A stretch of 64,000 bases of DNA from Eledone cirrhosa (lineage: Eukaryota). The stretch lies in NCBI GenBank assembly GCA_964016885.1, contig OZ024761.1, forward strand, positions 5,022,001 to 5,086,000, read 5' to 3'. The position numbers were made by a program, and so were the translations under genes. This document shows positions 2,279 to 63,454 of the stretch, piece by piece (position 1 is the stretch's first letter; each line of letters opens with the position of its first letter). The notes under the pieces are model-generated. The model was not told the DNA's origin. It worked only from the letters and a program-made list of their open reading frames with translations, and did not search any database.

Positions 2279-3575
2279 CAGGGTGCGGACAATATTTGTT
2301 CGCAAGATTACTGTCTAGGAAAAAGTAACACAGTAGTTATATTTTTTAAGGTATATTTATCAAACTTGGGTCAGTTTGGCTTCATGACTTGTTCTTTCGA
2401 TCTCACTCGATAAACCCGCCATTGGGTTTGATGACGGCCTCAAGGCGGCTTTGGAACTGGCTACAGGCCTTCGTCACTGTCCCCCGACTTAGGCCCCTAA
2501 AGGCACTTGTGATTCTGGCCTTCAGATCATCTTTCGTATTGCAGCTAGATGTGTTGGTGTCTCGTTCCACTGCGCCCCACACAAAGAAGTCGAGGGGATT
2601 GCAGTCAGGTGAGCTGGGAGGCTAGATGTCAGGTGACGTGTGGTCGACGAAGTTCTCTGACAGCCAGGCTTGGGTTTTTTGGCTGGTATGGCAGGGCGCT
2701 GAGTCTTGCTGCCACACGTACGGCCTACCTGCAGCTATCTGGTCGATCCAGGGCTTTACTACCTCGCTCAGAACACGGATGTAATCATCAGTGTTCAGCT
2801 TGAGGCCCTCAGGGAAGAAGTGAGGTGGCATGATGTCACCTTGACTGCTGACGACACCTAAGACCAATGTTGTCGCTGAAACTTTGTCTGCATGACTCTG
2901 GGCACGTCTTTGGATGAGACAGCGAGCCACCTGTTGTTCTGGGAGTTGATCTGCTGGTCTTGGCAGAAGTTTTTCCCGTCGGAGAAAAACCACACCATGC
3001 CTGGCTCCAGTGGGTGTTTCAACTTGTTGATCAGCTTCTTTGCGTGCTTCAGTCGCTTTTCTTGCATCTCCTTTGACAGAAATTGTCCTTTCTTCATCTT
3101 GTATGAAACGTAGCGAATATCTTCATGTACCACCAGCCAAATGAGCTTTTCATCCACGCCTTTCTCCCTTGCAATGGCACGCATCGACTTGCTAGGTTCA
3201 TTGTTGATGATATCCTGAACTTCAGCGATGAACTTGGGCGTTCTGAAGGCGTCAGATCGTGTGTTTTCCTCTCTGATGTTGCTTCGTAGTCGAATCCTGA
3301 ATCTTAAAATTCCTTTCTGACCTTTTCCACCATTCTCCTGCTGGCGCTGAGAAAGTCTGAAATTTCTTTATTTGTCCTCCCGGCACGGATTCCAAGAACT
3401 CTGTGTCTCTTCCACAAATTTGGAGGTTCAAAATTATTCATAATCAATTATTCTGAAAATAAATAATGGAAAATATAATCACTGTTTTTATGAAGACAAG
3501 AGTGACAACGGAAGTAAAAAGAATTGGCATAAAATTAGCAGTTGAAAATTGCGAACAAATATCGTCCACACCCTG
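2279..3575 (-). mobile_element. Tc1/mariner-superfamily DNA transposon, DD37D (maT) group, ~1.3 kb
   Basis: TIRs CAGGGTGCGGACAATATTTGTTCGCAA / TTGCGAACAAATATCGTCCACACCCTG, TA on both sides, internal transposase. Confidence 0.92.
2403..3441 (-). pseudogene. Disrupted DD37D transposase
   Basis: Motifs WFFSDGKNF, WQQDSAPCH and PPSSPDCNPLDF, with 37 residues between the 2nd and 3rd catalytic D. In-frame stop (DI*PP) and frameshifts are present. Confidence 0.88.
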
Positions 3576-10683: not shown

Positions 10684-10793
10684 TATATATATATATACTT
10701 AGGTTAATAGGAGTTAGGTATTATATACCCGTGTCCCATTAAGGTATTGGCAGCATAATAATTAGCTCTATGCTTTGGAGCCGTATATATGAT

Positions 10794-11133
10794 AAAGAAC
10801 ACAAGAGCGTCTACAACATCAAAAGATTTTTATTGGCTTACAATGTTTCTTCCTTACGTAACCGTAGGATTCGTCAGAGCTATAAAAGGGGTTTGATTGG
10901 TGTTATGGACTCTACCAACCAAACATTCAAGAACAAAGAGTAAAGAGAGTAAAGAGCAAAAGTAGGGGACGATAAGTCTAATTTTGGTGCGGGAGGGTGG
11001 GGTGTGGGTCCTTGTTTACTAGCTGCAGTCATATTCATTCCCGGGAGTCGGGTGGTTAGCTGAACCATAGATGGGGTGGCGTCGATAGTAGGGTGCAGAG
11101 GGTGTGCAGAGGCTACACACACACAAAGCGCAT

Positions 11134-11172
<39 letters not shown>

Positions 11173-11939
11173 CGGAGGAGAAAGTACATGAGGTAATTAG
11201 AAATGGAAAAAGAGTAATAATAATAATCTATAATTAATAGTGTATAATAAGGCATAGGGAAGATTACACTATAATAAGGTATAAAAGTAAGAATAAGGTA
11301 AAAAAAAAAAGGTAAGGTAAAAAAAAAGGTAAAAATCGGTTTTTTTACATTGTGTTTTCCCCTCCAAATATTCGCTTATATTTCTTTATATATTCTCTAT
11401 ATATATATTTTTTTATCTTTATTATTTCCACTTTTATCCTCCTTTATATTTTACCTTATTCTTACCTTTATACCTTATTATAGTGTAATCTTCCCCATGC
11501 CTTATTATACACTATTAATTATAGATTATTATTATTACTCTTTTTCCATTTCTAATTACCTCATGTACCTTCTCCTCCGCTATATGTATATATGTATTCT
11601 ACGCCCTTTGTGTTTGTGTAGCCTCTGCGCACCCTCTGCACCCTACTATCGACGCCACCCCATCTATGGTTCAGCTAACCACCCGACTCCCGGGAATGAA
11701 TATGACCGCAGCTAGTAAACAAGGACCCACACCCCACCCTCGCGCACCAAAATTAGACTTATCGTCCCCTGCTTTTGCTCTTTACTCTCTTTACTCTTTG
11801 TTCTTGAATGTTTGGTTGGTAGAGTCCATAACACCAATCAAACCCCTTTTATAGCTCTGACGAATCCTACGGTTACGTAAGGAAGAAACATTGTAAGCCA
11901 ATAAAAATCTTTTGATGTTGTAGACGCTCTTGTGTTCTT

Positions 11940-11940
<1 letters not shown>
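10794..11940. mobile_element. Large fold-back Penelope-like tail (arms ~10794-11303 / ~11449-11940), flanked by (TA)n
   Basis: About 500-bp arms are reverse complements (matching ORF peptides 10880-11137 - and 11666-11854 +), with a hammerhead near each outer end. Confidence 0.8.
11854..11898 (+). ncRNA. Type I hammerhead ribozyme (identical mirror copy 10836-10880 -)
   Basis: GCT-CTGACGA-A-TCCTACG(GTTA)CGTAAGGA-A-GAAAC-ATT-GTA-AGC; intact core, GUA triplet. Confidence 0.8.
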
Positions 11941-11983
<43 letters not shown>

Positions 11984-12576: not shown

Positions 12577-12667
12577 TAGATAGATTAAGAGGGACGGGGC
12601 TGTGTGGTTACTGATAATGAGTGTTAGAAAGTAAAAGAAACATGAACAAGAGATAGACATTTTCCTT

Positions 12668-12732
12668 TCATCAGTTGTCTACTACGGATCACAGATGTTT
12701 CAGCATATTATAGACAATACATCTATCCGTAG
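12668..12732 (-). ncRNA. Permuted, pseudoknotted hammerhead-like motif with k-turn, copy 1
   Basis: Minus strand CTACGG-ATA-GATGT-A-TTGTCTA-TAATATGCT-GAA-ACATC-TGTGAT-CCGTAG-TAGACAA-CTGATGA. Confidence 0.7.
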
Positions 12733-12774
12733 CGCGCCCATAACTTATTATCAAAATGTTATATATATTTATAT

Positions 12775-13112
12775 GGAGGCACATGGCTTAGTGGTTAGCG
12801 CATTGGGCTTGCAATCGAAAGGTTGTGAGTTCAATTCTCAGACCGGGTGATGTGTTGTTTCCTTGAGCAAGACACTTTATTTCACATTGCTCCAGTTTAC
12901 TCAGCTGTAGAAATGAGATGATAGGGACGGGGGTCCCTATCATTCCACTGCAAAGTGGTCGTGGAGGTGCCACGGCAAAAAAGCACCCAGCACTCACTGT
13001 AAAAATGAGGTTGGTGTTAGGAAGGGCATCCAGCTGTAGAAATCAAGCCAGAATCAGTTCCCGTCCCACCCTTGCAAGCAGGGAAAAAGCGGACGTAAAA
13101 TGAAATGATGAA
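12775..13112 (+). mobile_element. tRNA-derived SINE with CORE/Meta-like central domain and RTE-like 3' tail
   Basis: A box TGGCTTAGTGG, B box GAGTTCAATTC, CCTTGAGCAAGACACTTT..CTCAGCTGTAGAAATGAG, GAT-repeat tail; near-identical copies at 36161 and 62391. Confidence 0.88.
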
Positions 13113-13164
13113 ATGAATATATATGTATGTATGTTGATGTGCATGTATTTTTATTTTATTTTAG

Positions 13165-28826: not shown

Positions 28827-29066
28827 TATATATATTTTTTTTTATACTTAAATGATAAACACTTATTTTATTTGCCCTGTTTACTGGAGTCTTGATTCAG
28901 TCTTGTTAATTAAGTGTTCAGTTTGTTGAGAAAACTGTTATAAAATGATAGTGTCGTTAATTTAGTGTTCAGTTTGTTGAGAAAACTGTTATAAAATGAT
29001 AGTGTCGTTAATTTAGTGTTCAGTTTGTTGAGAAAACTTATAAAATGATAGTGTCGTTAATTAAGT

Positions 29067-29172
29067 GAACAGCGAGAGTGCAAACAAACAAAGATGGGGA
29101 AGCAACGATTGATTCGTTCTTCCTCACTTTTCGTTGCTTTACCATCTTTGTTTGTTTTCACTCTCGCTGTTC
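29067..29172. repeat. 42-bp inverted repeat just upstream of permuted hammerhead copy 2
   Basis: GAACAGCGAGAGTGCAAACAAACAAAGATGGGGAAGCAACGA / TCGTTGCTTTACCATCTTTGTTTGTTTTCACTCTCGCTGTTC. Confidence 0.85.
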
Positions 29173-29217
29173 CCTTTATTTACATGTCCCAACGACTTTC
29201 TTTAGCCGTTGCTCGCA

Positions 29218-29282
29218 CCAACCGGAGGTATATGGTCTTTAAAGCGAAGAAATACCGATGATGGTTGGAAGATCACTGATGA
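29218..29282 (+). ncRNA. Permuted, pseudoknotted hammerhead-like motif with k-turn, copy 2
   Basis: CCAACC-GGA-GGTAT-A-TGGTCTT-TAAAGCGAA-GAA-ATACC-GATGAT-GGTTGG-AAGATCA-CTGATGA. Confidence 0.75.
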
Positions 29283-29352
29283 AGGACCACTTTATTCATA
29301 TGTAACCCATTTGCAACTCCGCAGCACGTTTATTCTCATATATATATATATA

Positions 29353-35624: not shown

Positions 35625-37172
35625 CCCAGGACTTACATATATACAGAACATAGAGACAATAGCACTACTACTGTATATATATATTACATAGAGTACCCCA
35701 GGATATATATATATATAGAACATAGAGACAATAGCACTACTACTGTATATATATATATTACATAGAGTATCTCAGAATATATATATAGAACATAGAGACA
35801 ATAGCACTACTACTGTATATATATATTACATAGAGTATCTCAGGATATATATATATATATATAGAACATAGAGACAATAGCACTACTACTGTATATATAT
35901 TACATAGAGTACCTCAGAATATATATATATAGAACATAGAGACAATAGCACTACTACTGTATATATATATTACATAGAGTATCTCAGAATATATATATAT
36001 AGAACATAGAGACAATAGCACTACTACTGTATATATATTACATAGAGTACCTCAGAATATATATATATATAGAACATAGAGACAATAGCACTACTACTGT
36101 ATATATATATTACATAGAGTACCCCAGGATATATATATATATATATATATAGAACATAGAGAGGCACATGGCTTAGAGCATTGGACTTGCAATCGAAAGG
36201 TTGTGAGTTCAATTCTCAGACCGGGTGATGTGTTGTTTCCTTGAGCAAGACACTTTATTTCACATTGCTCCAGTTTACTCAGCTGTAGAAATGAGATGAT
36301 AGGGACTGGGGTCCATATCATTCCACTGCAAAGTGGTCGTGGAGGTGCCACGGCAAAAAAGCACCCAGCACTCGCTGTAAATGAGGTTGGTGTTAGGAAG
36401 GGCATCCAGCTGTAGAAATCAAGCCAGAATCAGTTCCCGTCCCACCCTTGCAAGCAAGGAAAAGCGGATGTAAAATGATGATGATAGAGACAATAGCACT
36501 ACTACTGTATATATATATTACATAGAGTACCTCAGGGTATATATATATAGAACACAGAGACAATAACACTACTACTGTATATATATATTACATAGAGTAC
36601 CTCAGGATATATATATATATATAGAACATAGAGACAATAGCACTACTACTGTATATATATTACATAGAGTACCCCAGGACTTACAAATATATGTATAACA
36701 GAGAAAATAGCACTACTAATGTATATATATTACATAGAGTACCTCATCATCATCATCATCATCATTTTACGTCCGCTTTTCCCTGCTTGCAAGGGTGGGA
36801 CGGGTCTTATTCAGCACAGCATCTCTCCACTTGTCACGGTCCTTCGTCATCTCCACCGTGAGCTTCAGCAATTTGAGGTCTGTTCACACCACCTCCGCGC
36901 ATGTTTTTCGTGGTCTACCTCTACTATGTACTGTATATATATTACATGTAGTACCTCAGGATTTATAAATATATAGAACATACAGAAAATAGCACTACTA
37001 CTGTATATATATTACACAGAGTACTTCAGGACTTATATATATAAAGAACAGAGAAAATAGCACTACTAGGTACTGTATATATATTACATAGAGTACTCCA
37101 GGACTTATATATATAACAGAGAATATAGCGTTACTAGGTATACTGTATGTATTTATATTACAAAGAGTACTC
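35625..37172. repeat. ~60-bp minisatellite with variable (TA)n, interrupted by a SINE and an RTE tail
   Basis: AGAACATAGAGACAATAGCACTACTACTGTATATATATTACATAGAGTA units. Confidence 0.85.
36161..36485 (+). mobile_element. tRNA-derived SINE (same family as 12775)
   Basis: Near-identical sequence with a short deletion in the A box. Confidence 0.88.
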
Positions 37173-62344: not shown

Positions 62345-62390
62345 CTGAAATTAATCAAAGACAGAATACTTTCTATAATATATATATATA

Positions 62391-62724
62391 TCATCATTTC
62401 ATTTTACGTCCACTTTTCCCTGCTTGCAAGGGTGGGACGGGAACTGATTCTGGCTTGATTTCTACAGCTGGATGCCCTTCCTAACACCAACCTCATTTAC
62501 AGTGAGTGCTGGGTGCTTTTTTGCCGTGGCACCTCCACGACCACTTTGCAGTGGAATGATATGGACCCCAGTCCCTATCATCTCATTTCTACAGCTGCGT
62601 AAACTGGAGCAATGTGAAATAAAGTGTCTTGCTCAAGGAAACAACACATCACCCGGTCTGAGAATTGAACTCACAACCTTTCGATTGCAAGGCCAATGCT
62701 CTAACCACTAAACCATGTGCCTCC
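62391..62724 (-). mobile_element. tRNA-derived SINE (same family as 12775)
   Basis: Reverse complement of 12775-13112 with few differences. Confidence 0.88.
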
Positions 62725-62804
62725 ATATATGAATCAAAATGGCGAGCTGTGTTGTTGCAATTAAGTATAATGAAAAATTAGAAATTAGAAGTTAGGATTA
62801 TCCA

Positions 62805-62869
62805 TCATCAGTTGTCTACTAGACATCATAGGCATTTCTTTGTGTTAAAGACAAGATACCTCAGCCTAC
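62805..62869 (-). ncRNA. Permuted, pseudoknotted hammerhead-like motif with k-turn, copy 3
   Basis: Minus strand GTAGGC-TGA-GGTAT-C-TTGTCTT-TAACACAAA-GAA-ATGCC-TATGAT-GTCTAG-TAGACAA-CTGATGA. Confidence 0.72.
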
Positions 62870-63419
62870 GGCGAAACAATAACTAAAGTAAGTTATTGGG
62901 ATAAAAAGAAGTGGGTGGAGAAAGAGAAAGACATGTAAACAAACACGATGGGTGAAGCAACGTAAAGAGAGGAAAAAAGGAAAAAATTAAGTCAATGGCT
63001 TTGGCCTCGCCATGGACACGAGGTTTCTGGCAAGGGCAACGTTGGTAGAGAAACCTGTACACCATTTGGGACACGATTTCACATCGAAAACAAATTAGTT
63101 TGTATGGAAAACAGCTGGTCCTCTACAGTCTTATTACTCTGGAGTTTCACCATTTAGCCATATTCGAAGATAAGAACGGGCGAATTTTGACGAGGAGAAA
63201 AAGACAGCATCTTGACCGTAGCAGTGTGAGCAAGAAAGACTGCATACAGTGTTGGACGATGGAGGAAGTGAGAGAGAGGGTGAGTAGCAGAGAGTGAGTG
63301 AGTGAAAATGCGAGGAAGAGGCTAGCCGAGAGAGGGTGACTAGCAGAGGGGGTGAGTGAAAGTAAGAGGGAGAAGGATAAAGAGAAGGGGAGAGAGAGAG
63401 GATAGCAGCAAGAGAAGAG

Positions 63420-63454
<35 letters not shown>

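Follow-up and report, generated by a model that had tools for sequence, protein, structure and literature searches.

A 64-kb stretch of Eledone cirrhosa DNA (the window; contig OZ024761.1, positions 5,022,001 to 5,086,000) carries three copies of a hammerhead motif whose strands follow a non-cyclic, pseudoknotted order. The motif is real, and it is a variant of the known SGC/CSG class of permuted hammerheads, opened at a point not previously described. We consider it likely that it is a monomeric self-cleaving hammerhead, its cleavage being predicted, that came from the 3′ ends of Naiad Penelope-like elements (PLEs) and sits in a retrozyme-like element for which a Neptune-type PLE is the probable current driver.

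An initial annotation had divided each copy, 65 nt in all, into segments of identical length (6-3-5-1-7-9-3-5-6-6-7-7), and this parse is confirmed at all three loci. The H of the NUH triplet falls where it had been placed, at window positions 29232 (+), 12718 (-) and 62855 (-), within AUA, GUA and AUC, respectively. A strand-order descriptor comprising NUH, six of six stem I pairs, stem III, GAAA and CUGANGA finds these three sites and no others in the window, and none in each of 100 block-wise dinucleotide shuffles. Together, the parse and the descriptor uphold a hammerhead core in a non-cyclic, pseudoknotted order. The expectation that standard descriptors would miss it also holds: at E ≤ 5, Rfam returns no ribozyme match at any of the three loci, and the descriptors in the accessible supplement of Eckert et al. 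2023 call for a C ahead of GAAA and for a stem II that immediately follows CUGAUGA (PMC10085705). The Rfam matches that do occur in the window were set aside as microsatellite- or hairpin-driven miRNA noise and a weak tRNA match on a SINE.

Stem II, previously given at most one pair, is in fact a helix of 4-5 bp. The last 4-5 nt of what had been read as a 9-nt linker find their partners immediately 5′ of the outer stem, so that the 5′ strand of stem II lies upstream of the 65-nt motif rather than after CUGAUGA. Because the end of the supposed linker belongs to stem II, the true linker between stems I and II is about 3-4 nt. Comparison of subfamilies gives the strand pairs UCGC/GCGA, UUGC/GCAA, ACGC/GCGU and GGCGC/GCGCC. 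The bases after CUGAUGA pair with a strand still further upstream to form helix IV, which closes the chain at position 9/10.1, and a hairpin V lies between the upstream helix IV strand and stem II. Among 112 copies whose stems I and III are intact, one has a contiguous stem II of at least 3 bp after CUGAUGA and none has one of 4 bp. The domain exceeds the annotated coordinates by roughly 32-45 nt on the 5′ side and by 5 nt on the 3′ side, giving a full predicted length of about 105 nt, about 45 nt beyond the original motif. Read 5′ to 3′, it consists of a helix IV strand, hairpin V, the stem II 5′ strand, the interaction helix (the outer stem), a putative kink, and stem III with UH; then stem I, a linker of 1-5 nt, the stem II 3′ strand with GAAA, stem III and a bulge; and finally the interaction helix, stem I with CUGANGA, and the second helix IV strand.

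A kink-turn consists of a 3-nt bulge followed by G·A and A·G pairs. The 3 × 6 loop between the interaction helix and stem III is k-turn-like in its sequence in subfamilies A and B. There, the opposing A is present in 29 of 29 copies and the opposing G in 24 of 29; the GA on the bulged side was dictated by the search pattern. In subfamily C, a simple 3-nt bulge separates the two helices. Unconstrained folding of four copies recovers helix IV, hairpin V and the interaction helix in all four, and stem III mostly or wholly, with partial loss in copy 3. Fold z-scores are weak for copy 2 (-0.38) and for another copy, L062 (-1.53). A hairpin downstream of CUGAUGA (GGA-NNN-UCC) was rejected, as it is missing from several subfamilies and helix IV accounts better for the same bases.

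The most intact of the three window copies is copy 2, of subfamily A. Its full predicted ribozyme domain, based on parse, alignment and folding, spans 29186..29287 on the plus strand. Helix IV pairs 29186-29189 (5′ strand) with 29284-29287 (3′ strand), hairpin V occupies 29191-29210, and stem II is formed by 29213-29216 (5′ strand) and 29244-29247 (3′ strand). The interaction helix (29218-29223/29263-29268) is joined through the putative k-turn (29224-29226/29257-29262) to stem III (29227-29231/29252-29256), after which comes the H at 29232; by analogy to the hammerhead core, cleavage is predicted 3′ of this A. Stem I (29233-29239/29269-29275), the linker (29240-29243), GAAA (29249-29252) and CUGAUGA (29276-29282) complete the domain. 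Position 11.1 (29248) is an unpaired A here and a U in most subfamily-A copies. The surrounding insertion (29066..29338, +) is 5′-truncated: a short inverted fragment at about 29066-29108 is followed by the 3′ part of the unit, and the insertion ends in (TA)n about 56 nt past CUGAUGA. This inverted fragment corresponds to the inverted repeat 29066-29173, which yields a spurious Rfam miRNA match; other long inverted repeats in the window lie at 1102-1601, 1-562 and 10784-11950.

Copy 3, of subfamily B, spans 62799..62903 on the minus strand, with its core at 62869-62805, H at 62855 (AUC), helix IV at 62903-62899/62803-62799, hairpin V at 62897-62878 and the upstream stem II strand at 62875-62871. 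It is probably decayed, because its stem II 3′ strand has two G-to-A changes relative to its subfamily. The insertion (62733..63422, -) has a pyrimidine-rich unit body that starts at an (AT)n tract, and its 3′ end abuts a tRNA-derived SINE. Copy 1, of the subfamily C type, covers 12668..12738 (-), with its core at 12732-12668 and H at 12718 (GUA). Its stem II pairs 12738-12735 with 12705-12702 on the minus strand, including two G-U pairs; its bend is a 3-nt bulge, not a k-turn, and the 5′ strand of helix IV has been lost by truncation. The insertion itself (12585..12760, -) is heavily 5′-truncated and lies between the head of a SINE and a (TC)n(TA)n tract. There are three copies of the tRNA-derived SINE in the window, 92-97% identical, at 62378-62729 (-), 12770-13124 (+) and about 36140-36486, two of which abut motif-bearing insertions. 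Elsewhere in the window, a 166-aa frame (2625-3122, -) resembles a Tc1/mariner transposase fragment.

Across the 3.0-Gb genome, a tight pattern for the motif has 5,624 matches against 0 in the control, and a loose pattern 11,742 against 32. For the main alignment, 42 complete copies were picked by eye from 105 distinct matches, excluding truncated and indel-bearing copies and many near-duplicates; GAAA, GAT and CUGAUGA are invariant in it by construction of the search pattern. In these 42 copies, 88.4% of cells are paired and two-sided changes occur in 21 of 23 pairs. The covariation score is 0.618 versus 0.244 for shuffled and at most 0.147 for slid alignments, the members being related and the shuffle control ignoring that relatedness. 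Stem I is 86.7% paired, stem III 92.4%, the displaced stem II 83.9% (both-sided change in three of four pairs) and the outer stem 92.4% (six of six pairs). The initial claim of covarying helices is thus supported, since stems I, II and III as well as the outer stem all show two-sided changes. The U16.1-A15.1 pair is U-A in 41 of the 42 copies. Helices IV and V were counted on the 29 copies of subfamilies A and B and are supported in subfamily C by one fold and inspection; helix IV is 79.9% paired, with two-sided change in one of six pairs (AU 12, GC 12, UA 3), and hairpin V 95.6%. On the A3 alignment of subfamilies A and B, further pair types are not above shuffles (375/500).

These patterns bear directly on the model of the initial annotation, namely an ordinary type SGC hammerhead with a one-pair stem II, the upstream pairings being incidental. 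The base after CUGAUGA can indeed pair with 11.1 in 31 of the 42 copies, using four pair types, as such a model would have it. However, the upstream strand covaries with the strand that precedes GAAA, and published Naiads make, by eye, 6 bp including G10.1-C11.1 with their upstream strand while the strand after CUGAUGA pairs elsewhere. We regard a one-pair stem II as extremely improbable.

All four stems pass in 71 of 146 E. cirrhosa matches, and many of the remaining genome matches are truncated or decayed. Among the matches listed for similar core patterns, the same four-stem test is passed by none of the 107 metagenome sequences and by one of the 110 viral sequences, which look chance-like and served as controls. 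The core shows signs of catalytic constraint as well. The identity of H, which the search left free, is A in 57, C in 39, U in 15 and G in 1 of the 112 copies with stems I and III intact, so that the NUH rule is kept in 111. Copies found through the 5′ half alone also keep CUGANGA and GAAA, mostly with single changes; 19 of them fail the core pattern, the commonest change being U-to-C at the free position 7 (6 of 19).

Some features of the core count against self-cleavage. At 10.1-11.1, most subfamily C copies have G-C, whereas in subfamilies A and B, which lack the canonical G10.1-C11.1 pair, position 11.1 is U or A and its partner is ambiguous. In addition, the two helices inserted beside A9 could disturb the G8/A9/G12 domain. 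One might therefore suppose that the fold is real and that it never cleaved efficiently, or no longer does so, acting as a signal, derived from a hammerhead, by which the reverse transcriptase-endonuclease recognises the 3′ end, or that it depends on a protein such as a k-turn binder for cutting. The position of the motif, only 20-100 nt from the element 3′ end, would suit such a signal, as would the poor in vitro cleavage of metazoan PLE minimal hammerheads (PMC4209133) and the fact that Naiads with other 3′ structures are described as spreading well too (PMC8557442). Yet a binding signal has no need of the NUH rule, of variation that falls on position 7, or of a full core that, by eye, is kept across unrelated Naiad sequences from five phyla. 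We judge a signal without efficient self-cleavage to be unlikely and continue to favour a self-cleaving ribozyme.

In the accessible text of Eckert et al. 2023, the hammerhead is split into three blocks, S, G and C, which are assumed to be indivisible and thus allow six orders (PMC10085705). The order UH→GAAA→CUGAUGA, which had been annotated as undescribed, is their type SGC: it was validated in vitro in 2023, was reported from metatranscriptomes rather than from genomes of known organisms, and cleaves slowly as a monomer, at 0.007-0.19 per min, when all four stems are present (PMC10085705); this slowness, too, counts against efficient cleavage here. Type CSG had previously been published from two metagenome sequences (PMC10085705). 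The E. cirrhosa motif shares with type SGC the block order S→G→C, intact CUGANGA, GAAA and UH, a short linker between stems I and II (3-4 nt here, typically 3 nt in type SGC) and a helix that connects stems I and II at their other ends, to which the outer stem is equivalent by connectivity. In contrast to type SGC, the 5′ strand of its stem II no longer adjoins CUGAUGA and lies at the 5′ end instead, so that block C is split; helix IV and hairpin V are added at 9/10.1; a putative k-turn or a bulge links both strands of stem III to the interaction helix; and it resides in an animal genome in thousands of copies. From this connectivity, the new order would result if the free ends of SGC were joined through the kink and its chain were broken between A9 and N10.1, and the transcript would exit via helix IV, comparable to the open stem of types I-III. 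The 9/10.1 site appears permissive, because canonical PLE hammerheads tolerate and keep an extra nucleotide there (PMC4209133). Eckert et al. were puzzled by how stem III joins the helix of the stem I-stem II interaction (PMC10085705), and the kink may account for its reaching that helix. Within the literature consulted, which was mainly open-access, neither this form nor permuted hammerheads in Naiads are reported, and the accessible portions of Forgia et al. 2023 describe no such variant.

Another alternative is a strand-swapped dimer, in which two copies in a tandem transcript would rebuild the canonical type III order. Head-to-tail tandems are common here, and dimeric activity is established for PLE and amphibian hammerheads (PMC4209133; PMC7229834). 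The minimal type I hammerheads of PLE pseudo-LTRs likewise lie near the 3′ end of the PLE; unlike the E. cirrhosa motif, they have the cyclic order and a weak or absent stem III and are dimer-dependent (PMC4209133). That dependence stems from the weakness of stem III, which is not a feature of the E. cirrhosa motif, where folding makes stem III and the interaction helix a stable local hairpin within each copy. Moreover, stems I, II and IV are complete inside one copy, and the published SGC monomers cleave (PMC10085705). A dimer is thus a very unlikely alternative to the monomeric ribozyme that we prefer.

The motif lies near the 3′ end of non-coding units that occur as 5′-truncated monomers, head-to-tail tandems and inverted pairs in (TA)n tracts; (TA)4 is found within 110 nt of CUGAUGA in 112 of 146 matches. 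Measured over 17 match-to-match intervals, some of them overlapping, the units are 445-637 nt long with one hammerhead each. They are 38-44% GC and 65-71% pyrimidine, and are homologous across subfamilies. Unit identity is about 70-85% from one subfamily to another, with most subfamilies at 71-82%, and 92-95% inside a subfamily. Folded as circles, four units are 35-46% paired. At the loci examined, no PLE coding frame is continuous with the unit and no autonomous parent is attached to the motif; the PLE frames beside two units (L075 and L130) and a unit near L469 were rejected as separate insertions, since (TA)n lies between. One site (G000:C27:2736990-2840435) holds eleven near-identical old copies spaced at intervals of 7-18 kb; they belong to a segmental array, with C2H2 zinc-finger frames close by.

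In being non-coding, low in GC, tandem and endowed with one hammerhead each, these units resemble metazoan non-LTR retrozymes, which carry type I hammerheads, give rise to highly self-paired RNAs of about 170-400 nt and are thought to be derived from PLE pseudo-LTRs and mobilised by PLEs (PMC7229834; bioRxiv 10.64898/2026.07.22.740005). In contrast to type I retrozymes, they carry a permuted hammerhead, are longer, pyrimidine-rich and weakly paired, and are known here from DNA alone (PMC7229834). The family is therefore retrozyme-like, and departs from retrozymes in hammerhead type, size and self-pairing.

A source for the ribozyme is suggested by the Naiad elements of other animals. In the accessible text of Craig et al. 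2021, Naiads are said to lack canonical hammerheads, and sequence words termed 'HHR_core' and 'HHR_half_core' fit no descriptor and are given no fold (PMC8557442). Our parse of their File S5 was made by eye and covered all 62 CTGATGA places, 30 of 81 CGAAAC places and, for most of the 54 entries, the 3′ end; within it, the fold described here ends nine Naiad consensus sequences from five phyla (PMC8557442). Naiad_Obim and Naiad_Ovul have, by eye, the identical fold, with the 7/13 spacing, the k-turn and the hairpin V loop, and with a 6-bp stem II beginning G10.1-C11.1 and a 1-nt linker. Three Acropora Naiads and those of Pomphorhynchus and Eulimnadia, although unrelated in sequence, have the complete set of IV, V, II, III, I and interaction helix by the same inspection, whereas those of Beroe (short stem I) and Euprymna (weak stem II) have the same order with a poorer fit. 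G10.1-C11.1 is supplied by the displaced strand in most of these Naiads, again as judged by eye. Eight nematode Naiads (Ppac, Parc, Nbra-1 to -3, Hcon, Hpol and Asuum, two of these names being assigned from file position) show a complete type CSG with a long interaction helix in the parts of File S5 inspected by eye (PMC8557442). Chelicerate and ostracod Naiads (Ptep from Parasteatoda, Lpol and Dst) present an SGC-like arrangement, partly visible in the same file, with GAAA before CUGANGA and interaction-like helices. No hammerhead is seen in the bivalve and hemichordate entries within the portions of File S5 examined; in those portions, the 3′ ends of these entries and of Naiad-1_Movir carry a different conserved structure. 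We take the Naiad-1_Movir structure to resemble twister. This suggests that Naiads swap ribozyme classes.

The similarity of the units to the 3′ ends of Naiad_Obim and Naiad_Ovul, as far as File S5 shows them, is clear by eye. Like Naiads, the units show (TA)n targeting, 5′ truncation, partial tandems and inverted copies (PMC8557442), features that are not diagnostic of Naiad because other PLE clades share them. Unlike Naiads, which have an N-terminal GIY-YIG and a C-terminal reverse transcriptase (PMC8557442), the units have no endonuclease-reverse transcriptase frame, and they are at most non-autonomous derivatives, since no Naiad frame is attached at the motif loci examined. Two Octopus-Naiad-specific patterns have no matches in the E. 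cirrhosa genome. A Naiad protein-motif pattern led to one decayed copy and, through it, to 80 Naiad remnants, 42 of which have stops within an 82-aa stretch; the best non-self identity of long matches is 59%. One such remnant, at G000:C2:79414900-79417200 (L416, L417), and those at 79 more places retain reverse transcriptase sequence (DKA motif, thumb) with many stops and frameshifts. No ribozyme motif lies beside the 25 remnants examined of these 80, and so Naiad descent is inferred from other species. On these comparisons by eye, the ribozyme appears to have been inherited from the 3′ ends of Naiads.

A different element may move the units at present. At three loci (L007, L133 and L476), the 5′ truncation of a Neptune-type element runs directly into an inverted unit, with no intervening (TA)n. 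L007 was found via the motif, L133 was one of two loci taken for long frames, and L476 was one of 40 taken irrespective of the motif, so that chimeric Neptune-type loci number 1 of 40 in the unselected set. The junctions, at about 1608 in L007, 1517-1540 in L133 and 3776 in L476, show short microhomologies, and L133 adds about 17 nt of the sense tail of the unit. The Neptune-type family has frames near 1,000 codons, inserts at (TA)n and has an ordinary type I hammerhead of its own. Pfam gives a sub-threshold RVT_1 match for the L133 protein and none for three others. The label itself comes from a C-terminal GIY-YIG-like motif and a Cys-rich linker in the translation, compared with the definition in the accessible text of Craig et al., and Nematis may be an alternative. 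Several other ordinary minimal type I hammerhead families, tied to other PLEs, are amassed in (TA)n tracts (L003-L030, L075, L130, L133).

From the three chimeric insertions, current mobilisation by the Neptune-type element seems fairly probable, and this element is favoured as the present driver because the Naiad remnants seen in the genome are decayed. The driver could instead be a Naiad not found in the assembly or another (TA)n-targeting PLE clade, with the Neptune junctions being accidental. The motif is, after all, of Naiad type, other PLEs with C-terminal GIY-YIG domains adjoin units with (TA)n between them (L075, L130), and only three chimeras were seen, one of them through the motif. 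Nevertheless, the units are 92-95% identical within subfamilies, whereas local Naiad matches are decayed and cephalopod Naiads are described as long inactivated (PMC8557442), and the chimeric junctions lack (TA)n and obey the inverted-copy rule of PLE insertions. We therefore consider another driver rather unlikely, and retain the Neptune-type element in the scheme that follows. The ribozyme would fold within a single copy, pseudoknots included, and cut 3′ of H; cleavage at successive tandem copies would release unit-length RNA, linear or circular; this RNA would serve as a template for reverse transcription, as proposed for animal retrozymes; and a Neptune-type PLE would mobilise the units in trans.

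We lean slightly towards a broader reading, in which this hammerhead is a permutation outside the six thought possible, opened in its catalytic core via a fourth helix, and is, with types CSG and SGC, the missing ribozyme of Naiads in at least five animal phyla; in E. cirrhosa it would have survived the demise of its Naiad host within a retrozyme-like family numbering over 11,000 copies, which a different Penelope clade would mobilise in trans. If so, non-circular hammerheads would be common in animal DNA rather than a rarity of metatranscriptomes, and non-circular permutations would pass from a few hundred metatranscriptome sequences to high-copy residents of animal genomes. Two published statements would be contradicted: that Naiads lack hammerheads, and that three indivisible blocks permit six orders. 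The kink would offer a structural answer to the puzzle that Eckert et al. raised over the geometry of stem III and the interaction helix (PMC10085705), and genome searches would gain a new descriptor from the fold, which would also serve as a natural scaffold whose exit beside the core is free. Finally, the enzyme that moves animal retrozymes could be sought through the chimeric insertions.
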